Shown here: positions 16,987-56,829 of the stretch, piece by piece
How the letters are laid out: every line of letters begins with the position of its first letter
How positions within the stretch are numbered: the first letter of the stretch is position 1
Assembly: GCA_029210625.1 (NCBI GenBank)
Contig: JARGFU010000001.1
Location: forward strand, 325,806-389,805
Direction: 5' to 3'
DNA: 64,000 nucleotides
Source: Deltaproteobacteria bacterium
GTDB taxonomy: Bacteria > Myxococcota > Myxococcia > SLRQ01
Made by a program: the position numbers and the translations under genes
Notes under the pieces: model-generated
What the model saw: the letters and a program-made list of their open reading frames with translations, nothing else
Told to the model about the DNA's origin: nothing
Databases searched by the model: none

Positions 16987-17512
16987 GCTGCAGTCCTTCA
17001 GAGACATCTTCCCGACGGTCGATTCTAGCGCGTTCGTGCACGAGCGCTCCTTTCTGGCCGGCGACGTGGTGGTCGGCCCCGAGAGCAGCATCTGGCCGGG
17101 GGCGTCGATCCGCGGCGACGTCGGCCCGATCCGGATCGGCGCCCGGACCAACATCCAGGACAACGCGGTGGTGCACGTCACCGGGGGCCGCTCCCCCACC
17201 CTGATCGGGGACCGGGTCACCGTGGGTCACCTGGCGCTGCTCCACGGCTGCCAGGTCGGCGACGACTGCCTCATCGGCATGGGGTCCATCCTCCTGGACG
17301 ACGCCAAGATCTCGCCCTGGAGCTACGTGGCCGCCGGCAGCCTGGTCACCCCGGGGAAGGTCTTCCCCGAGGGGGTGATGATCATGGGCCGGCCGGCCCG
17401 GGTGGTGCGGGAGCTCACCGAGCTGGACCGCCAGGAGATCGTCCAGGGGGCCCTCAACTACCTGGAGCTCCTGCCGGCCTACGCCCTCCCGGGCACCTCT
17501 TCTGCCCGCTGA
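16985..17512 (+). CDS. gamma-class carbonic anhydrase family protein (hexapeptide repeat, YrdA/PaaY-like)
   Basis: MLQSFRDIFPTVDSSAFVHE...SSIWPGASIRGDV aligns to YrdA-type gamma-CA proteins. The start ATG is embedded in a CATG shared with the divergent gene. Confidence 0.85.
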   Translation: MLQSFRDIFPTVDSSAFVHERSFLAGDVVVGPESSIWPGASIRGDVGPIRIGARTNIQDNAVVHVTGGRSPTLIGDRVTVGHLALLHGCQVGDDCLIGMGSILLDDAKISPWSYVAAGSLVTPGKVFPEGVMIMGRPARVVRELTELDRQEIVQGALNYLELLPAYALPGTSSAR

Positions 17513-17567
17513 TTTCCTCGGCGTCCGGTGGTATAGCCCGGTGCCTTCCCCCTTCGAGGAACCCACC

Positions 17568-18704
17568 ATGGCAAACCCCGCCTTTCCCGAGCTGAACCCG
17601 ACCCTCCTCGCGGCCCTCGAGGGCCGCAGCCTGCAGGTCACCGGCGACTTCGACACCGACTCCCTGGGCGCGATCCTGGATCTCGCCGACGCCTTCTGGG
17701 CCCTCGATCGGGCCGGCGTGCGCGCGCCCCTCTGCCCCAACGAGCTGGCCTACGCGCTCTTCTTCGATCAGTCGACGCGCACCCGCTCGGCCTGGGCCGG
17801 CGCCGCCGCCCGCCTCGGGATGCAGCCGGTGATCGTCGACGGCAGCAGCACCCAGGTCGCCCACGGCGAGACCGCCGAGGAGACCGGCGCGATGCTGGGC
17901 ATGAACGCCCACGCCCTCGGCGTGCGCCACGACCTGATCCTCCACCAGGGCCGGGCCTTCATCGGCGACATCCTCAAGGGGATCAGCGACTACCTGAAGG
18001 CGACCGACGACAAGCGCTGCGTGCCCATCGTGAACCTGCAGTGCGACTACGATCACCCGACCCAGACCCTGGCGGACCTGCTCCACCTGCGGCACCGCTT
18101 CGGCGGCGTGCAGGGCAAGAAGATCGCGGTCTCCTGGGCCTACTCGCCCTCCTACGCCAAGCCCCTCTCGGTGCCCCAGGGCCTGATCACCCTGCTGCCC
18201 CGCTTCGGCGCCAACGTGGTGCTGGCGCACCCGCCGGGCTACCGCCTGATGGACGAGGCCCTGCAGAAGGCCGAGGCCGGCGCGAAGGCCGGCGGCGGCA
18301 GCTTCGAGATCGTCGACTCCATGGACGCCGCCTTCGAGGGCGCCGACGTGGTCTACCCCAAGAGCTGGGGTCCGATGGAGCTGATGGAGGAGCGCCTCGC
18401 CGCGAAGGACCGCGCCGACCTCGCCGAGATCGAGGCGCGGGCGCTGGATCAGAACGCCCGCCACCGCGACTGGATCTGCAACGAGGAGCGGCTGGCCAAG
18501 GCCGCCGCCGACCCCCTCTACATGCACTGCCTGCCGGCGGATATCGGCGCCGAGGCCTCCAGCGGCGTGCTCGAGCAGTACCGGGTCTCCCTCGCCGAGG
18601 AGGCCAACGGCAAGGTCTACGTGATCATGGCCCTCCTCGCCGCCGCCAAGGTCCCGGGCCTCGCGGCGAAGATGGACGCCCTGCGGCAGGAGATGAAGGC
18701 GTGA
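17568..18704 (+). CDS. carbamoyltransferase-family protein (OTCase/ATCase fold, YgeW-like)
   Basis: STRTR motif (FFDQSTRTRSAW), HPTQTLADL and HCLPA motifs. GAGGAA RBS before ATG at 17568. Confidence 0.85.
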   Translation: MANPAFPELNPTLLAALEGRSLQVTGDFDTDSLGAILDLADAFWALDRAGVRAPLCPNELAYALFFDQSTRTRSAWAGAAARLGMQPVIVDGSSTQVAHGETAEETGAMLGMNAHALGVRHDLILHQGRAFIGDILKGISDYLKATDDKRCVPIVNLQCDYDHPTQTLADLLHLRHRFGGVQGKKIAVSWAYSPSYAKPLSVPQGLITLLPRFGANVVLAHPPGYRLMDEALQKAEAGAKAGGGSFEIVDSMDAAFEGADVVYPKSWGPMELMEERLAAKDRADLAEIEARALDQNARHRDWICNEERLAKAAADPLYMHCLPADIGAEASSGVLEQYRVSLAEEANGKVYVIMALLAAAKVPGLAAKMDALRQEMKA

Positions 18705-26226: not shown

Positions 26227-28221
26227 ATGTCCGACGAACGCCGGCCCAGCCCGGAAGAGGTCACCGACCCGGATCGCACGGATCCGAGGGCGGAGCGGCC
26301 CGAGCGCCGCCCGGAGGCCACCGACCCCGGGAGCCCGGCGCCCGCCCGCTCCACCGATCCGACCCCGGGAGACGCCGAGCCCACCCGGATGGAGGCTCCT
26401 CCCACCTCCCGGCCCCCAAAGGAGGCCCCCTCCACCGACCCCACCCCGGCCGACGCCGAGCCCACCCGGATGGAGGCTCCCCCCACGTCCCGGCCCCCGA
26501 AGGAGGCCCCCTCCTCCGACCCCACCCCGGCGAACATCGAGCCCACCCGCCTGGAGCCTCCCCCCACTTCTCGCCCTTCGAAGGAGGCCCCCTCCACCGA
26601 CCCCACCCCGGCGAACATCGAGCCCACCCGCCTGGAGGCTCCTCCCACCTCCCGGCCCCCGAAGGAGGCTCCCTCCACCGACCCCACCCCGGCGAACATC
26701 GAGCCCACCCGCCTGGAGGCACCTCCCACGTCTCGCGCCCCGAAGGCCGCGGCGTCCACCGACCCCACCCCGGCCGACGCCGAGCCCACCTTCCGGGGCG
26801 TGCCCCCCGCTGCCCGGCCGGCGACCGGGGACACCGCCGTGCCCTCGCTGGCGCAGCTGCGCGAGAGCCGCCGCCAGCGGCGCCCCTCGGACCGCGTCAT
26901 CATCGCCCTGGCGGCCCTCGGCGGCGTCGCCGTGCTCCTCGCCGCCTTCGCCCTCACCCGCCGGGAGACCGTCGATCCCCACGCCGAGCTGCAGGAGCGC
27001 CACGCCCGGGCCGAGCAGATCTACGTCTCGGGGATGGAGGCCTTCCGCGCCGAGGAGTGGGAGCGGGCGGAGGCGGCCTTCGCCGAGGCGGTCTCCCTCC
27101 ACCCCCGGCACGAGAAGGCCAAGGACTACCTCGACGCCTCCCGGCGTGAGCGCGAGGCAGCGCTGGCCCTCGCCGACGCCGCGCGGCTCCTCGAGCAGGG
27201 AGACCTCGCTGCGGCGACGACCGCGCTCGCCCGGGTGCGGCGCGACTCGATCCTCGCCGGACAGGCCGAGGAGCTGCAGAAGCGCATCGACGGCGTGAAG
27301 CTCGCCGGCGTGCTCGACGTCTTCCACGAGGCGCTGGCGGGCACCGATCCGATGGCGGTGCTCTCGGCGCTCGAGGCGGCCGCCGGGCAGCCGGCCCTCG
27401 AGCGGGCCCGTCGCGAGCTCACCGCCCTCGAGGCCATCTCGCTGGACGCCGCCGCCGAGCAGCTCACCCTGGCCCGGGAGCGCGCGCCCGACGCCGCGGA
27501 CGTGCGGGTCGCCCAGCGCCAGCTCGAGGCGCGGCGGGAGGCGATCACGACGGCCATCAGCCTGAAGAAGGTCGAGATCAGAGAGCTGGAGGGTGACGCG
27601 GAGGACGCCGAGGCCCGGCGGATCAAGGAGGCGATCGAGCGCACCCTGCGCCCGGCGCGCGCGGCCTTCGAGCGGGGCGCCCTCGGCGAGGCCGGCCGGA
27701 TCCTCAAGGCCGGCCCCGCGCGGGCCGACGATCTGCCGGAGGTGCGCCGGGCGGTGAAGGCCGCGCGGGACGCCCTCCCCCGCTACCAGCGCTCCATCAC
27801 CGCCGCCCAGCGCTCGGAGAAGCAGCGCGACCTCTCGAGCGCCGCCACCCACTACACCCAGGCCCACCAGGCGGCCCGGAAGATCGACGCCGGGGGCACC
27901 CCCACCCAGACCGCCCTCGAGGGCGCGGTGCGGACCCGCTACCTCGCCGGCCGCGCGGCCTTCAACGCGGAGAAGTGGCCCGAGGCCTTTGCCCAGTGGT
28001 CCCAGGGCGGGCGCCTCGACCCCTCGGACGCCAACCTCTCCCGCGGGCTGAAGGACCTGGACGCCAAGGCCAAGGAGCTCTACCTGCAGGCCTACGTGAA
28101 CAAGCCCTCGGTGCCCGAGCGAGCGCGCCGGGGCTTCCAGCTGGTGCTCAAGATGACCCCGCCGGGGAGCGAGTGGAACCGCAAGTCGCGGGAGCAGCTC
28201 GCCGAGCTGGGAGGACCCTGA
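26227..28221 (+). CDS. membrane-anchored protein with six N-terminal 27-aa tandem repeats, one TM helix and a TPR/coiled-coil-like periplasmic domain
   Basis: Repeats of the form STDPTPA(D/N)(A/I)EPTR(M/L)EAPPTSRPPKEAP. TM segment VIIALAALGGVAVLLAAFAL. GAGGGG RBS. Confidence 0.7.
   Translation: MSDERRPSPEEVTDPDRTDPRAERPERRPEATDPGSPAPARSTDPTPGDAEPTRMEAPPTSRPPKEAPSTDPTPADAEPTRMEAPPTSRPPKEAPSSDPTPANIEPTRLEPPPTSRPSKEAPSTDPTPANIEPTRLEAPPTSRPPKEAPSTDPTPANIEPTRLEAPPTSRAPKAAASTDPTPADAEPTFRGVPPAARPATGDTAVPSLAQLRESRRQRRPSDRVIIALAALGGVAVLLAAFALTRRETVDPHAELQERHARAEQIYVSGMEAFRAEEWERAEAAFAEAVSLHPRHEKAKDYLDASRREREAALALADAARLLEQGDLAAATTALARVRRDSILAGQAEELQKRIDGVKLAGVLDVFHEALAGTDPMAVLSALEAAAGQPALERARRELTALEAISLDAAAEQLTLARERAPDAADVRVAQRQLEARREAITTAISLKKVEIRELEGDAEDAEARRIKEAIERTLRPARAAFERGALGEAGRILKAGPARADDLPEVRRAVKAARDALPRYQRSITAAQRSEKQRDLSSAATHYTQAHQAARKIDAGGTPTQTALEGAVRTRYLAGRAAFNAEKWPEAFAQWSQGGRLDPSDANLSRGLKDLDAKAKELYLQAYVNKPSVPERARRGFQLVLKMTPPGSEWNRKSREQLAELGGP
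26350..26800 (+). repeat. 81-nt in-frame tandem repeat (~5.5 copies) inside the CDS at 26227-28221
   Basis: Near-identical nucleotide units encode the 27-aa repeat. The antisense ORF 26261-26722 reflects the same periodicity. Confidence 0.8.
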
Positions 28222-28223
28222 CG

Positions 28224-28778
28224 ATGCGCGCGGCGGCCCCCTCGTCCCTCCTCGCCCTCCTCTTCCTGGCGGCCTGCGGACCGCCGGCGCCGGAGGAGTT
28301 CGAGCGCCTGCCCCTGGCCGATCCTCTCCCGGACTTCGCCCTCGAGGACGTGAACCCCGCCTCGGCGAGCCACGGGCTCAGCCTGGGGCCGAGCCACCTG
28401 CGCGGGAAGGTCTCGGCCTGGTACTTCGGCCACAGCACCTGAAGCTACTGCCGGGGCCAGTTCGGCTCCCTCGACTACATCCAGGCCGAGCTGGACGCCG
28501 AGCCGGCCTCCCGACCGATCCAGATCTTCGGCGTGAACGGCGCCGGCCACGAGTCCGCCAACGCCCTGATGGTCGAGGGCCGCACGCTGCCCCTGCTCCA
28601 GGACCTCGAGAGCGTGGACGCCTGGGGCAGCTGGTCGGTGATCTACCGGGACGTGATCATCCTCGACCCCGACGGGGTCGCCACCCACGCGGTGAACCTC
28701 TCGGCCTTCCCCCTCGACGATCAGCGCCGCATCGACGCCCTCGAGGCGCTGCTGCGCTACGTCGCCGACGAGCTCTGA
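28224..28778 (+). CDS. lipoprotein thioredoxin-fold (TlpA/redoxin-like) thiol-disulfide oxidoreductase, candidate selenoprotein (TGA at 28440-28442 read as Sec)
   Basis: Two ORFs in the same frame are separated by a single TGA. Read through, this gives GKVSAWYFGHST-U-SYCRGQFG, a redoxin active site with Sec replacing the first Cys (UxxC). A downstream cis-Pro block follows (RTLPLLQD...VIILDPDGV). Lipobox LAACG. Confidence 0.7.
28443..28480 (+). promoter_or_regulatory. candidate bacterial SECIS-like hairpin immediately 3' of the in-frame UGA
   Basis: GGGGCC-AGUUC-GGCUCC is a 6-bp stem, including one G-U pair, with a 5-nt loop starting ~11 nt after the UGA. This is fold-by-eye only. Confidence 0.3.
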
Positions 28779-46763: not shown

Positions 46764-48051
46764 GCCGCTCGAGGACCCGCTCGGCCAGGGTGAGCACGCC
46801 CTCGAAGCCGAGGTGCGGCCTCGGGCGCAGGGGGTGGGTGTCCACCTGCGGATAGCCGAACTCGAGCACCGGCAGCTCGGGCGCCCGGCCCGCGATCGCC
46901 CGCGCCTCCCAGGCGCTGCCGATCAACAGATCGAGGGGACCCCGCGTCTCGGCCTCCTCCACGGCCGCCTGGAGCCGCTCCACGCTGGGGTCGAAGAGGA
47001 GGCGCTCGACCCGCGCCTCGACGAGCTCCTGCTCCGGCAGCCCCTCCGGGCCTCCCCGGCTGCGGCAGAAGGCCGTGTCGACCTCGAGGCCGAGATCGTC
47101 GGTGAGGCAGCGCACCATCCCCGGGAGCCACTCCCGGGTGGCGGCGATCATCACCCGCCGGCCGAGCAGGCGATCGGCGACCGTCTCGAGGCGCTCGAGG
47201 ATCCGCTCCTGCTCACGGCCGATGAGCTCGGCCAGGTGGGGCCCCCTCCCCCGCGCCTCACCCAGCGCCTGCAGCCAGGCGCTGCTCCCCTCGAGGGAGA
47301 GGGGCAGGGGCAGCTCGAGCGCCGCCGTCTCGCTCGCCCGCCGCAGCCGCTGGGCGGCCTTGCGGGCCCCGGGCAGCGCGATCAGCTGCTCGCAGGCCGC
47401 CACCCGCTGCAGCTCGGGCCAGGGCGCGCCCGAGAGCCAGGGGGGAAGGAGCTCGAGGCCGAGGAGCCCGGCCAGGCGCGCCAGCTCGAGGAGGTCTCCC
47501 TCGACGTCGCCCTCGCTGCGGTGCGCCAGGTAGCCCAGCAGCCCGAGGGTGTCCGGCTCGACGGCCGGGGCCTCGGCGCAGGCGCCGGCCAGCTCCGCCA
47601 GCAGCACCTCCCAGGCGTCCTCGTAGCTCCGGTCGAGGTGGCGGGTGCGGGCGGCGAGCACCGGCACGCCGTGCCGCTTCTGCAGGGCCCGGGCGACCGC
47701 TCGCAGATCCTCCCCGGCCAGGAGGTAGCGGGGCAGCTCCGAGAGCAGCACCAGCGAGGGCGCGATCCGGGCGAAGGCGCCGTCCGCCGTGCTCATCACC
47801 TCGGACTCGGTGCCCATCACCATCTGGGTGTAGGGGTCCCGGGTGACCCAGAGCCGGTTCGGCGCGTCGGGGCGCGTGAGGGTCTGGCGCAGGTCGTGAT
47901 CGATCATCTGCGCCCGGAAGGCCTCCTCGATGCAGGACGAGCCCCGGTAGAGGAGCAGCGCGTCGGGGATCGCCCCGGCCACCATGAAGACCCCGTCCAT
48001 GAAGGAGGGGGTGGTGCGCAGGGTGTCGTCCCGGGGTGGCGCCTCGCTCAT
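46702..48051 (-). CDS. nitrogenase component-1-like (NifD/K/E/N, BchN/B family) protein
   Basis: GAIPDALLLYRGSSC resembles the conserved GA..IPDA..HG..GC block. GGAGG RBS. ATGA overlap with the upstream gene. Confidence 0.65.
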   Translation of the reverse strand: MSEAPPRDDTLRTTPSFMDGVFMVAGAIPDALLLYRGSSCIEEAFRAQMIDHDLRQTLTRPDAPNRLWVTRDPYTQMVMGTESEVMSTADGAFARIAPSLVLLSELPRYLLAGEDLRAVARALQKRHGVPVLAARTRHLDRSYEDAWEVLLAELAGACAEAPAVEPDTLGLLGYLAHRSEGDVEGDLLELARLAGLLGLELLPPWLSGAPWPELQRVAACEQLIALPGARKAAQRLRRASETAALELPLPLSLEGSSAWLQALGEARGRGPHLAELIGREQERILERLETVADRLLGRRVMIAATREWLPGMVRCLTDDLGLEVDTAFCRSRGGPEGLPEQELVEARVERLLFDPSVERLQAAVEEAETRGPLDLLIGSAWEARAIAGRAPELPVLEFGYPQVDTHPLRPRPHLGFEGVLTLAERVLERLSASSAPRGRPRGGARRARS

Positions 48052-50147
48052 GTCCTGACCTCCGGTCCGCGGAAGGCCGCCAGCCTGCGGCGCGAGTCCA
48101 GCCGCCGCAGCAGCCCGCGGAGCCGGCCGTGGCCGCGGCGATGGCCGGCCTCCCCCATCTCCAGGAGCTGGATGCCCACCGGCGCCGCGCCGGCCGCCCA
48201 GATCTCCCGGCCGGCGTTGTGATCGCAGTAGACGAGATCGAGGGACGCGTCGGCGACGAGCCGGGCGAGCTCGACCTCGTCCTCGACCCGCAGGCGGCGG
48301 GGCCCTCCGCCGGAGGCGTCCGTGGGCTCGTCGTCGCCGCCGAGCTGCACCAGGACGAGCTCGGCGCCGGGGAAGTCCAGGAGCTCCTCCACCGAGGCGC
48401 CGTAGAAGAAGCGGGGATCGAGCACCTCCTCGAAGCTGCCCTGATCGAAGAGCACGCCGATCCGGATGGGCTGCTCCGAGGCGCGCAGCCCGGGCAGCGC
48501 GCTCGCCGCGCCCGCCTCGCCGCCGAGGTCGCGGCCGAGGAAGCGATGGATCGCCTCCAGCCACCGGCGCAGGCCCCGCGGCCCGTAGGGTAGCGCCAGC
48601 TCCAGGTAGGGGAGCTCGAAGCCCTCGAGGAAGCGGGTGAAGGTGTGGCGGATCGGCTCCCAGGGAGAGACGAGGGTCAGGGCCGCCTGGCCGAAGCGCG
48701 CCTCGGCGTCCGCGCCGCGGTAGGGGAGCACGACCTCCCCCAGGGCGAGGCCGTGCCGCTCGAGGGTGCCGGCCAGATCCGCGATCCAGGGGGCCTCGGC
48801 CGGGCCGTAGCCCACCAGGTTGATCCGGGGCGCCCCCTGCAGAGCGGCCGCCGCGCCCTCCTGCGCCTGCACCCGCTCCAGGAACTTGTGCCACCAGTTG
48901 CGCGACTGCGGCTCCTCGAAGCCGGCGAGCACCGGCTCCAGGAAGAGCGCGTCGCTGGCCGCGGGCTCGACGCAGCGGCGGCAGGCCGCCTCGGGGGCGT
49001 CCCCCACCATGTGGAACTCGCAGCCCTCCATCACCCGGGGCCGGGTGCCGGGGAAGCGGCGCACGGTCTGATCGACGATCTGCGCCAGGGTGCGCTCACC
49101 GCCGGTGACCGAGATCGTCTCGTCCAGCCCGGTGACCCGCACCCGCTCGATCTCCATGCGCTCCCGGGGATCGTGACCCCGCCAGGGGCGGAAGCTCGTC
49201 TCGATGCTCCGTCCGAGGGCGCCGGTCCCCATGGCGCACTCCCGCGAGGCGTGGAGCACCATCGGGTCGCTGTCGCGAAGGAAGTTCGCCTCGGCGGTGA
49301 GGCCAAAGGTGTCGGCGTCGCCCCAGGCGGAGAAGAAGCGGCTGCTGGCGTGAGGATCGACGCCGGCCCGGTAGCAGGCCGAGATGAGGCTCTGGCGTTG
49401 CCGCGCGGGCTCTCCCCCGGACTCCGGGGAGGGCTCGCTGGCCGGCGCCTCGGGGGGTGGGCCGGCGGGCGGCTCGGGGGGATCGTCCTTCGGCACCCGG
49501 GCCCAGCCCTGGCGGCCGCCGAGGGTGCGCAGGAGCAGGAAGGTGAGGGCGGTGAAGACCTCCGCCTCGAGCGGCCCCTGCGGGATCAGCCGGCCACCGG
49601 CGAGGGCGAAGCCCTCGCTCTCCTCTCCGGTCTCGCGCAGCAGCACCTCTCCCGCGGCGCCGCCCTCGTCCTCGAGCAGGAAGCGCACGGCCTCCCCCTC
49701 GGCCTCCTCGAGCGCCCTCAAGCACCAGCCGGACCAGAAGGGCCGGCCCAGGGGCAGGAGCCCGGCGATGGCGTCGCCGATCGCCTCGGGGGTGAAGGGG
49801 ATCGGCTCTCCCGGGAGCTCCGGGGCGAGCCAGGGAGCGAAGCCCGCCTCGAGGGCCTGCGTCAGGCGGCGGTGGAAGGCCTCCAGCTGGCGGCGGCTCG
49901 CCTCCCCCCGGGGCAGGCCCTCGCCGCCGATCAGGCGCCAGGCCCCCAGCCCGAGGACCGGCCCCTCCCGGGAGGCGGCGCCGGCCAGCTCGAGGATCAT
50001 CGCCCGCCGGTGGCTGCCCTCACCCCAGGCCAGCTCGAGGCTGCCCTCGGCGGTGGGCCGCAGCCGGGCGGGGCCCTCGCTGCGCGTGCCGAACTTCTCG
50101 GCGAGGTGAGAGAGGACCGAGTCCAGGGGCGGCGGTGCCGAGAACAT
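48048..50147 (-). CDS. nitrogenase component-1-like protein with ~350-aa N-terminal extension of unknown function
   Basis: The C-terminal half shows Oxidored_nitro-like blocks (RINLVGYGPAEAPWIADL..). Tight coupling, 6 nt downstream of the nifH-like stop. Confidence 0.6.
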   Translation of the reverse strand: MFSAPPPLDSVLSHLAEKFGTRSEGPARLRPTAEGSLELAWGEGSHRRAMILELAGAASREGPVLGLGAWRLIGGEGLPRGEASRRQLEAFHRRLTQALEAGFAPWLAPELPGEPIPFTPEAIGDAIAGLLPLGRPFWSGWCLRALEEAEGEAVRFLLEDEGGAAGEVLLRETGEESEGFALAGGRLIPQGPLEAEVFTALTFLLLRTLGGRQGWARVPKDDPPEPPAGPPPEAPASEPSPESGGEPARQRQSLISACYRAGVDPHASSRFFSAWGDADTFGLTAEANFLRDSDPMVLHASRECAMGTGALGRSIETSFRPWRGHDPRERMEIERVRVTGLDETISVTGGERTLAQIVDQTVRRFPGTRPRVMEGCEFHMVGDAPEAACRRCVEPAASDALFLEPVLAGFEEPQSRNWWHKFLERVQAQEGAAAALQGAPRINLVGYGPAEAPWIADLAGTLERHGLALGEVVLPYRGADAEARFGQAALTLVSPWEPIRHTFTRFLEGFELPYLELALPYGPRGLRRWLEAIHRFLGRDLGGEAGAASALPGLRASEQPIRIGVLFDQGSFEEVLDPRFFYGASVEELLDFPGAELVLVQLGGDDEPTDASGGGPRRLRVEDEVELARLVADASLDLVYCDHNAGREIWAAGAAPVGIQLLEMGEAGHRRGHGRLRGLLRRLDSRRRLAAFRGPEVRT

Positions 50148-50153
50148 CTGGGC

Positions 50154-51017
50154 TCACGACCCCCGCTGGCTCCCGGACCGCGCGGCCCGGGCGTGCTCCT
50201 GGAAGAGGGCCCGCAGCTCGACGTCGGAGAGCGGGGTGGGCACGATCCGCTCGAGGGCCGCCTCGTCGGCGATCGCCTCGAAGATCGTCACGAGCGCTCC
50301 GCTGGCCTCGCCGGTGGCCCCCTCGCCGCTCCGGAAGAGGGGCTCGCCCTCGAGCTCCGAGAGCACCACCTCCTCGGAGAAGGGGAGGTGACCCACCAGG
50401 CGGGTCTGCAGGGCCTCGGCGAAGCGCTCGAGGAGGCGCAGCTCCTCCGGGCTTCGCACCTTGTTCCCGATGATCCCGGCGACCCGGGCCTGGCCGATGT
50501 CGGAGAGGTTGTCGACGCCGCGGGCGATGTTGTTGGCGGCGTAGAGCGCCATGTACTCGGCGGAGGTGATGAGGAAGACGTCCGAGGGGATGTCCTCCCG
50601 CAAAGGCGTGGCGAAGCCACCGCAGACCACGTCCCCCAGGACGTCGAAGAAGGCCAGGTCGTAGGTGCGCTCGAGCTCCATGGACTCCCGCACCATCTCC
50701 AGCACCAGGCTCACCGCGCGGCCGGCGCAGCCGGTCCCCGGCTCGGGCCCGCCGGTCTCGATGACGTCGACCCCGGTGGGGGTCGAGACGATGAGCCGTT
50801 GCAGATCCTCGGGCCCCATCCGCCCGACCAGGCGGAGGAACTCCTGCATCACCGTGGGCACGGGCTCCCCCCGGTGATGGGCCAGGGTCGAGTCGTGCTT
50901 CGGATCGCAGCCCACCTGCAGCACCCGCAGATCGCGGCTCGCGCCCACCGAGGCGAGGCCCGAGCAGAGGGTCGACTTCCCGATCCCTCCCTTGCCGAAG
51001 AGGATGATCCTTCGCAC
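50154..51017 (-). CDS. NifH/BchL/ChlL-family ATP-dependent reductase iron protein homolog
   Basis: GKGGIGKST P-loop, GCDPKHDST, both cluster Cys (CAGR, VCGGFA). GTG start with an AAGGAAG RBS. Confidence 0.9.
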   Translation of the reverse strand: MRRIILFGKGGIGKSTLCSGLASVGASRDLRVLQVGCDPKHDSTLAHHRGEPVPTVMQEFLRLVGRMGPEDLQRLIVSTPTGVDVIETGGPEPGTGCAGRAVSLVLEMVRESMELERTYDLAFFDVLGDVVCGGFATPLREDIPSDVFLITSAEYMALYAANNIARGVDNLSDIGQARVAGIIGNKVRSPEELRLLERFAEALQTRLVGHLPFSEEVVLSELEGEPLFRSGEGATGEASGALVTIFEAIADEAALERIVPTPLSDVELRALFQEHARAARSGSQRGS

Positions 51018-51087
51018 GCTTCCTTTTCCGATCCGCGGGTCGTTTCGTCCACCGACGAGGCCACCCGGCCTCCCCGGGAGCGGGTCA

Positions 51088-51111
51088 TCCTAAACCAGAG
51101 ATCATGATTCC
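51088..51111. promoter_or_regulatory. 24-bp element CCTAAACCAGAGATCATGATTCCC (left arm of inverted-repeat pair) in the nflH-like promoter region
   Basis: Its reverse complement recurs at 51234-51257 with 21-22 of 24 matches. Lies in the AT-richest segment of the window. Confidence 0.5.
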
Positions 51112-55278: not shown

Positions 55279-56820
55279 TCAGCCCCGCAGGACCCCCATG
55301 AGGATCTTCAGCCCCTCGACGGTCGCGGGGCCCGGCTCACCGCCCTCGACGCGGTAGCCGCCGCTCGGCTTGCTGCGCTCCTGCGCCAGCCAGAAGGTCA
55401 GCCGCGCGCCCTCGGGGCCCTCGAGGGAGAGCTCGGCCCGCTGGCCGTCCACCGAGAGCTCGAGGGCCGTCCAGCGCAGCTCGCCGAAGGGGGCCGCCGC
55501 GCGCAGGCGGCCGAGGCGGCCGCGCAGGCGGCGCTCGCCCCGGCCGAGGAGATCGCGGCCCGGCGGGTGCACCGGCCGCTCGCCGCCGGCGAGCAGCCCC
55601 TCGAAGAGGGCCAGCAGCGCCTCGTAGACCCCCGCCTCGTCGTCGGGCGCCGAGCGCAGGTGGATCGAGAAGTCGGCGAAGCCGCAGAGGCCCACCTCGG
55701 AGGCGGGGCGCAGGGCGAAGACGAGCTCCCCGGGCTCACCCTCGAGGTGCAGCTCGAGCTCGTTGTCGGCGGTGAGCGAAGGCGCCGCCGCGCCGAAGGC
55801 GGCGAGGGGGCCGAGGGCCGCGGCGCGCTGACCGGCGGCCCAGAGGTGGGGCCAGAGCACGCGCCGGTTCGGGTCGGCCTCGCGCAGCTGCTCGACGTTC
55901 ACCGGCTCGAGCTCCTCGAGGCCGTAGAAGTCCCGGTAGGTCTCGAAGGTCCCCGAGCAGCGCGCGGTGAAGACGCAGGACGCGCAGCCGGTGGTCTTGA
56001 GCTTGTCGGTGCGCTTGTCCTCGTACTTGTCCCAGGGCGCGGAGAGCGCGTCGTCACCGTCGACCGAGACCGTGTAGGTCATCTCGCCGTCGTGGTGGAT
56101 CCACCGGGCGAGGTGCGGCGCCACGCAGTAGGGCAGGTTGCCGATGTTGAGATCGAAGTCGCCGGCGACGCCCTGCGCCAGGGCGGTGAGGGGCCCCCGC
56201 AGCTCGGCGTAGCTCGGGAGGATCGCCCGCAGCTCCTCCTCCTCGCGCACCCCGGCGTCCCGCGGCCGCATCATGTCGAGGTGGAGCTGGTCGATCCCGT
56301 AGCGCTCGATCAGCTCGGGGAAGTGCTGCACGGAGGCGGCGTTGCTCTTCACCACGCACATGTTCGCCGAGACCCGCTCCCCCCGCTCGCGCAGGCCCTC
56401 GAGGGTGGCGAGGATCCGGCCGAAGGAGCCCGGGCGGCGGGTGGTGGCCTCGTGGGCCTCGGCGGTGGCGCCCTGCAGCGAGAGCCGCCAGCGCAGCGGT
56501 GCGCCGAGGGCGATGAGCTCGTCGATGTAGCTGCCCCGCGCGGTCTTCACGCCGTTGGTGAAGAGGACCACCTCCTCGAAGCCCAGCGCGGCGCAGCGCT
56601 GCAGCACGGCCTTGAAGCCGGGCTGGAGGGTGGGCTCACCGCCCAGGAGGGTGATCTTCCGCAGGCCGTGGGCGTGGGCCGCCTCGATGTGCTCCAGGAT
56701 CGGCTCCACCGGCATCGGCCCCGCCTCGCCCCAGGAGGTGCGCTGCCCGCTGACGCAGAAGACGCAGCGGTTGTTGCACATGTGCCCGAGCTGGATCTCG
56801 GCCTGGCGGGTCGGCTCCAT
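55279..56820 (-). CDS. radical SAM/SPASM-domain enzyme with novel C-terminal domain (paralog of 7932-10097)
   Basis: CNNRCVFC is a CxxxCxxC motif. CASCVFTARC is a SPASM-type motif. The C-terminal LELSVDGQRAELSLEGPEG motif is shared with the 7932 gene. AGAAGGTAG RBS. Confidence 0.85.
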   Translation of the reverse strand: MEPTRQAEIQLGHMCNNRCVFCVSGQRTSWGEAGPMPVEPILEHIEAAHAHGLRKITLLGGEPTLQPGFKAVLQRCAALGFEEVVLFTNGVKTARGSYIDELIALGAPLRWRLSLQGATAEAHEATTRRPGSFGRILATLEGLRERGERVSANMCVVKSNAASVQHFPELIERYGIDQLHLDMMRPRDAGVREEEELRAILPSYAELRGPLTALAQGVAGDFDLNIGNLPYCVAPHLARWIHHDGEMTYTVSVDGDDALSAPWDKYEDKRTDKLKTTGCASCVFTARCSGTFETYRDFYGLEELEPVNVEQLREADPNRRVLWPHLWAAGQRAAALGPLAAFGAAAPSLTADNELELHLEGEPGELVFALRPASEVGLCGFADFSIHLRSAPDDEAGVYEALLALFEGLLAGGERPVHPPGRDLLGRGERRLRGRLGRLRAAAPFGELRWTALELSVDGQRAELSLEGPEGARLTFWLAQERSKPSGGYRVEGGEPGPATVEGLKILMGVLRG

Positions 56821-56829
56821 GGCTACCTT

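Follow-up and report, generated by a model that had tools for sequence, protein, structure and literature searches.

The window, by which we mean the whole 64-kb stretch of DNA that was analysed, has a G+C content of 72.7% and a GC3 of about 0.95 in its genes. At 28224–28778 on the plus strand, it contains two open reading frames that share a frame and are split by a single TGA codon at 28440–28442; this arrangement had been reported in a preliminary description, and we found it as stated, from the ATG at 28224 to the terminal TGA at 28776–28778. Read through, the two parts encode a product of 184 amino acids with the junction ...GKVSAWYFGHST-*-SYCRGQFGSLD..., in which the context of the presumed active site is ...WYFGHST-U-SYC-R.... 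In the source GenBank record, whose proteins MDF1561677–MDF1561705 fall in the window, the N-terminal piece (28224–28442) is listed as MDF1561685.1, a 72-aa 'hypothetical protein P1V51_01505' that bears no family name, and the gene is thus both split and unrecognized there. The features of the locus are as follows:

28209–28215, plus strand: Shine-Dalgarno-like GGGAGGA, 8 nt 5' of the ATG at 28224, recognized from the sequence
28224–28778, plus strand: predicted selenoprotein gene, 184 codons including the selenocysteine (Sec) codon, with the terminal TGA at 28776–28778
28224–28277, plus strand: predicted lipoprotein signal peptide MRAAAPSSLLALLFLAA-C with the lipobox L-A-A-C and Cys18 at 28275–28277, recognized from the sequence
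28440–28442, plus strand: UGA codon 73, predicted from codon comparison to be read as Sec, at the N-terminal, attacking position of U-x-x-C
28449–28451, plus strand: Cys76 (TGC), the resolving Cys of U-S-Y-C, in a column that is invariant in both family alignments
28453–28469, plus strand: SECIS-like hairpin with the 5' arm GGGGCC (28453–28458), the loop AGUUC (28459–28463) and the 3' arm GGCUCC (28464–28469)
28590–28592, plus strand: Pro123 of the LPLLQD block, equivalent to FPVVLD / FPLLSD of ResA and peroxiredoxins and not to the cis-Pro, from an HMM alignment with ResA (2h1b)
28647–28652, plus strand: Arg142-Asp143, family-invariant, in the place of the TlpA/ResA cis-Pro loop, aligned to 2lrn (F-P-H) and ResA (L-P-T-T)

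The stop codon of the preceding gene (28219–28221) lies just 2 nt before the ATG, and the upstream ORF (26227–28221) and the predicted selenoprotein gene are therefore probably co-transcribed. The upstream gene, on the same strand, encodes a protein of 664 aa in which a Pro/Thr-rich repeat unit of 81 nt (27 aa) occurs in 5.5 tandem copies (26344–26790), followed by a long helical region; searched against NCBIfam, this protein had no family match.

In a six-frame scan of the 64-kb window, 28440–28442 was the sole in-frame TGA that had no restart signal and was flanked on either side by a strong coding signature, with GC3 values of 0.96 and 0.98. TGA is at the same time the commonest ordinary stop codon of the window, where it ends 18 of the 27 confident ORFs and also the selenoprotein gene itself. 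The genetic code is consequently not reassigned, any read-through at 28440–28442 must be local, and a local recoding signal is required.

We searched for relatives with the read-through protein, substituting Cys for the stop. This first search returned three full-length relatives (P0001–P0003) and six N-terminal fragments. The former carry Cys at the TGA position (CPYC, CGYC and CSYC), which is the alignment that had been proposed as a check, and Cys76 is invariant; the claim that TGA replaces the nucleophilic Cys while the resolving Cys is kept is supported. Each of the fragments ends exactly at ...WYFGH(ST/AT/AG). The DNA behind them, retrievable for eight loci, has TGA at this point in all eight, followed in frame by G/S-Y/G-C-x-x-Q-F-G/D-x-L... 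and then by about 110 more conserved residues. The preliminary description had named a lack of conservation across the TGA as an argument against its reading; instead, a conserved in-frame continuation is found in all loci.

Pattern scans of species-representative genomes and JGI metagenomes yielded 82 further loci. We defined the core family as [WY]YFxxxx[U/C]xxC, which comprises 62 loci with 51 distinct sequences, from hosts labelled, for instance, as Planctomycetota, Eisenbacteria, Myxococcota and Verrucomicrobiota. The codon in question is TGA in 43–44 of these sequences and TGC or TGT in eight; given that one of the two scan patterns required a Cys codon, the share of Sec forms is, if anything, underestimated. 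The homologous codon is TGA in every Sec-type locus examined, and the ORF 3' of it is always open for 100–124 codons, or longer where dockerin/PEP-CTERM-like extensions are attached. A profile search extended the family to 785 proteins, about 60 of them full-length and hundreds of them C-terminal fragments of 97–105 residues, listed as 'hypothetical protein'.

Several members show further peculiarities. C-terminal dockerin (PF00404) or PEP-CTERM-like extensions occur in P0025–P0027, P0032 and P0038–P0040 as well as at loci L034, L042, L044 and L048, and P0024 resembles a tandem, with a first domain devoid of the redox motif and a second one ending at the TGA. Five database entries (P0019, P0051, P0054, P0056 and P0064) are full-length and have Trp at the Sec position (HATWGYC / HSTWGYC), presumably because they were translated with a table in which TGA encodes Trp.

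A candidate for the local signal that such recoding requires is found immediately downstream. A short hairpin had been suspected about 11 nt 3' of the UGA; we located it at 28453–28469, where it spans 17 nt, starts 10 nt 3' of the UGA and places the apical loop at a distance of 16 nt from it. Counted from the U of UGA as nt 1, nt 14–19 pair with nt 25–30, forming 6 bp around a 5-nt loop, and a 21-nt piece containing the hairpin folds at -10.5 kcal/mol. All six stem pairs are formed in the window, and TGA-bearing sequences form 5.74 of the six on average, as compared with 3.4 in Cys-bearing ones: Cys-form members lack the hairpin, which is specific to the UGA forms.

The hairpin covaries across the family. 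Applied to 44 distinct 66-nt segments, RNAalifold returned the same helix unprompted, with compensatory changes in 4/5 of its pairs. Standard pairs fill 95.8% of the alignment cells, versus 79.6% in column shuffles (none of 500 as high), and paired cells drop to 25–51% once the 3' partner is slid by 1–3 columns. Likewise, 35 double-change cells were observed where 7.1 were expected (0 of 500 shuffles), and none of the 500 shuffles matched the observed covariation score. At the codon level, the second base of codon +5 pairs with the third, synonymous position of the Gly codon at +8 in the combinations AGC/GGC, AUC/GGA, GCC/GGG and GAC/GGU; since a synonymous base tracks its partner here, selection acts on the RNA and not on the protein. 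Other parts of the element are less telling: AGUUC or AGUUU forms the loop of 42 of the 44 sequences, but as CAG UUC encodes the conserved Gln-Phe, this conservation is confounded with protein constraint; conserved amino acids likewise fix two of the stem pairs, and the conservation of the RNA is thus partly confounded in the same way.

Bacterial SECIS elements have UGA-to-apical-loop distances of 16–37 nt (PMC10778597) and a small apical loop with a guanosine (PMC1088965). Judged from its sequence, the geometry of the window hairpin, with 16 nt and a small G-containing loop, agrees with both published criteria, although its distance is the shortest that this range allows. Like SECIS elements of the Escherichia coli fdhF type, it is short, directly follows the UGA within the ORF and has a small loop with a G followed by a U; unlike these, it has an unrelated, family-specific sequence and only 6 bp, without a bulged U. 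In the proposed folding of the region 3' of the TGA and its comparison with SECIS models, the short hairpin fits the published criteria, but the unconstrained minimum free energy (MFE) fold of 28440–28500, computed from the window sequence alone, prefers another, longer hairpin (11 bp, 16-nt loop), and a search of Rfam at gathering thresholds found no SECIS family match, with only chance-level hits to nhaA-II and RcsR1 in E-value mode. We rejected the longer hairpin as a SECIS candidate, as it is not conserved, and preferred the short one, which is backed by both the alignment fold and the pair counts. The absent Rfam match is expected for family-specific SECIS elements within coding sequence. 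The short hairpin is best described as a clean, covariation-supported and family-specific predicted SECIS.

The family to which the window protein belongs has already been curated. The protein matches the NCBIfam model NF053656.1 (redoxin_TUGYCR, 'TUGYCR motif thioredoxin fold (seleno)protein') with 183.3 bits (cutoff 100) and an E-value of 2.3e-54, over profile positions 2–144 of 146, and the same model is matched by all 35 aligned relatives. The window motif T-U-S-Y-C-R corresponds to the T-[U/C]-G-Y-C-R pattern of this family; the Gly of the family name is Ser in the window protein, a common variation that is found in many USYC members. Both share the T-U-x-Y-C-R motif, and the family mixes Sec and Cys forms. 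By its sequence, the window gene is accordingly a genuine member of a selenoprotein family that NCBI has already curated, and since the curation includes the Sec/Cys dimorphism, it is of a known kind and its novelty is low.

Beyond this model, the protein is only marginally captured by general domain families. Its Pfam match to AhpC-TSA (PF00578) scores 21.3 bits, under the gathering threshold of 26, and the relatives show weak matches to AhpC-TSA (sub-threshold in 22 of 35), Redoxin, SCO1 and, once, SelP_N. A full-text literature search for 'TUGYCR' returned no paper. However, the family may have been seen under other names: the GOS metagenome survey described the UxxC selenoproteins 'Prx-like 2' and 'Prx-like 3' as very distant homologs of peroxiredoxins, with weak similarity only to pfam04592 (SelP_N) or pfam08534 (Redoxin) (PMC2398784). 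TUGYCR members share these weak SelP_N and Redoxin matches, and by comparison of the descriptions, both GOS groups probably represent TUGYCR or sister groups under earlier names.

Two further groups of TGA-containing sequences came up in our searches. Sister groups carry TGA in the context ...IYFSxAT-U-xHC or IFWMRAT-U-GHC (L080 at 3115, L081 at 1439, L082 at 2462, L083 at 2103, L024 at 926 and L079 at 3124); L024, L080 and L082 score 78–86 bits with NF053656, below its cutoff of 100, and the curated model may thus not capture them. A separate, ResA/SelL-like group has TGA in VVLVFYRGYW-U-PFC (L069–L078, L085 and L086; e.g. at 2080 in L069). Its best NCBIfam similarities, to ResA, PrxU and a SelL-related redox protein, are all under the cutoff, and the group probably belongs to the known 'Prx-like' selenoproteins.

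To place the family structurally, we used an AlphaFold model of the Cys homolog P0029, and not of the window protein, built from a 42-sequence alignment. The model has a pLDDT of 92.2 and shows a thioredoxin fold that has an N-terminal extension and a central insert; within this single domain, helix alpha-1 (residues 68–86) begins with the redox pair. In Foldseek, its top matches are TlpA/ResA/DsbE-type oxidoreductases, and BCP, AhpE and Tpx peroxiredoxins rank behind them; the matches include the pneumococcal lipoprotein thioredoxin Etrx2. The fold is intermediate between TlpA/ResA/DsbE-type oxidoreductases and BCP-type peroxiredoxins.

The window protein differs from both of these neighbours. 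Unlike the TlpA, ResA, DsbE (CcmG) and Etrx types, it has Sec for the first Cys, and the sequence similarity to them is marginal, with PDB profile E-values of 0.03–0.3. Whereas TlpA-type proteins have W-C-x-x-C, no Trp directly precedes its motif, which reads W-x6-U-x-x-C; the wording 'canonical WxxxCxxC' in the preliminary description has to be corrected in this respect. The same applies to the cis-Pro block that was described there. In profile alignments to 2lrn and ResA, which have weak E-values but are independent and agree with each other, LPWLQD of the family, represented by LPLLQD with Pro123 in the window, corresponds to FPVVLD of ResA, while the invariant Arg142-Asp143 aligns with the cis-Pro of both structures, and the LPLLQD block is for this reason not the cis-Pro block. 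A cis-Pro loop opposite the CxxC, as in TlpA and ResA, is accordingly missing from the window protein, and the family has the invariant Arg-Asp in its place. Arg at the position equivalent to the cis-Pro is reportedly a trait of peroxiredoxins, and in the sequence alignments, the invariant Arg142 falls on this position. The window protein differs from BCP/PrxQ/AhpE-type peroxiredoxins in several respects: the peroxidatic motif PxxxTxxC is absent from F-G-H-S-T-U-S-Y-C, which has no Pro and a Thr that adjoins U, the spacing of U-x-x-C is thioredoxin-like, and the Pfam match stays below gathering. In its mode of action, the window protein is predicted to work like an exported U-x-x-C oxidoreductase.

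An extracytoplasmic location is also what its N-terminus suggests. A positively charged and hydrophobic segment precedes the lipobox LAAC, and the lipobox Cys is at least 90% conserved among homologs. The sequence thus fits a predicted lipoprotein anchor, and an extracytoplasmic location fits both with this conserved Cys and with the C-terminal dockerin/PEP-CTERM-like extensions of some members.

Taken together, we consider it very likely that 28224–28778 is one gene, encoding a Sec-containing, lipid-anchored and extracytoplasmic thioredoxin-fold oxidoreductase of the NF053656 family. The Sec-containing thioredoxin-fold lipoprotein with a UxxC active site that the preliminary description envisaged is supported by the alignment of Cys with the TGA, the presence of TGA in about 44 sequences, the covarying hairpin, the match to NF053656 and the fold. 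During translation, SelB carrying Sec-tRNA(Sec) would bind the hairpin 3' of UGA-73, and selenocysteine would be inserted at this codon in place of termination. The preprotein would then be exported, with Cys18 as the site of lipidation. Sec73 and Cys76, placed at the N-terminal end of helix alpha-1, would cycle between the selenol/thiol and the selenenylsulfide form and thereby reduce a periplasmic substrate, either a disulfide or else, possibly, a peroxide or a sulfoxide, with the invariant Arg142-Asp143, in the usual place of the cis-Pro, lining the active site. For the source organism, we infer the insertion of Sec from the preserved invariant residues downstream of the TGA, the full-length profile match and the perfect hairpin; export and lipidation are predicted from the signal peptide and lipobox.

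Several other explanations have to be weighed against this one. In public databases, nearly all members are split into an N-terminal and a C-terminal fragment (about 97–105 aa), and taken at face value, such calls describe two independent genes, here a small N-terminal lipoprotein and a C-terminal protein restarting at GTG 28533. We give this reading practically no weight, given that Cys-form homologs are single polypeptides, that the TGA falls within one compact thioredoxin-fold domain, between strand 58–63 and helix 68–86 of the model, and that x-x-C-x-x-Q-F-G-x-L-D, located between the TGA and any restart codon, is among the most conserved stretches of the family. It is also very improbable that faulty sequencing or assembly produced the TGA, or that it arose as a nonsense mutation of a TGC Cys codon in this genome alone; the gene would then be an ordinary Cys redoxin or a pseudogene. 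Admittedly, TGA is one base away from TGC and TGT, and the sequence stems from a metagenome-assembled genome; but about 44 distinct sequences, obtained from independent samples and different phyla, share the TGA, and the window also has the hairpin, a feature of TGA forms that Cys forms lack. Equally, there is hardly any reason to assume that the TGA is read through without Sec, either by a code reassigned to Trp or Gly or by near-cognate suppression. While some database entries of the family (P0019, P0051, P0054 and others) do show W at this position, TGA is a regular stop in the window, the homologs have Cys and not Trp or Gly, the redox motif needs a chalcogen nucleophile, and the covarying SECIS-like hairpin is present.

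The remaining explanation concerns the decoding capacity of the source organism. No tRNA genes were found in the 64-kb window, tblastn with the E. coli proteins found no homologs of SelA, SelB or SelD at E <= 1e-3, either in the window or in related loci totalling 616 kb, and none of the 20 ORFs that were annotated with NCBIfam in the first 38 kb was selenium-related. This agrees with the earlier statement that the window has no selA, selB, selD or tRNA-Sec gene, and one may therefore suspect a relic, in which a Sec-form ancestor left the gene to a lineage that has lost Sec decoding, so that only the 72-residue N-terminal fragment, the 72-aa hypothetical protein of the GenBank record, is made and the downstream part decays. 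We regard this as improbable, the little weight that it keeps lying with a recent loss of the trait. The downstream 111 codons keep all family-invariant residues (C76, Q79, F80, P123, L125-Q126-D127, W137 and R142-D143) and a GC3 of 0.97–0.98, the match to NF053656 covers the full length of the protein, and the hairpin pairs perfectly in 6 of 6 positions.

A YgeW-like knotted carbamoyltransferase is encoded in the same window at 17382–18704 (plus strand; 340 bits with NF005538, cutoff 453). YgeW often accompanies loci for selenium-dependent molybdenum hydroxylases; other markers of this system were not found among the annotated ORFs of the window.

In the wider family, a tRNA-Sec gene was found next to some Cys forms. 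In the Cys-form subgroup ...NCGYC(A/S)AQFGELD, it lies 10–80 nt downstream of the family gene, on the same strand, in six loci (L015 9323–9422, L018 6253–6353, L032 583–682, L095 10568–10667, L096 697–796 and L097 1409–1508). ARAGORN finds all of these genes, and the Rfam model RF01852 scores 64.4 bits in L015 and 62.7 bits in L018, whose neighbourhoods differ apart from the tRNA-Sec gene. The upstream synteny of L015 is kept in the next Cys subgroup (P0047/L098), which is devoid of selC, and no adjacent selC was found for the Cys form P0001/L093; the linkage is thus limited to certain lineages, and it may be plain synteny. A more far-reaching view is that the TUGYCR family is more than a plain TlpA-like disulfide reductase and constitutes a distinct class of extracytoplasmic Sec enzymes, which combines U-x-x-C with a peroxiredoxin-type Arg in the place of the cis-Pro and acts, for example, as a periplasmic selenol peroxidase or sulfoxide reductase, and that the recurrent position of this Cys-form subgroup 5' of tRNA-Sec could then reflect a functional tie to selenium status, not mere synteny. 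We think this unlikely.

The practical value of the gene lies mainly in annotation, as it and hundreds of its relatives are split into two 'hypothetical proteins' despite the curated model, and the predicted SECIS hairpin could be used to find and repair such split gene calls. As for its biology, the gene adds one more predicted exported, lipid-anchored Sec redox protein, with an unusual substitution of Arg for the cis-Pro; it makes no long-standing question testable. Elsewhere in the window, the NCBI annotation names MDF1561700.1 'nitrogenase component 1' (48048–51089, minus strand) and MDF1561705.1 'radical SAM protein' (55279–56829, minus strand), and in L098, the Cys-form family gene has an Oxidored_nitro gene pair about 4 kb upstream.
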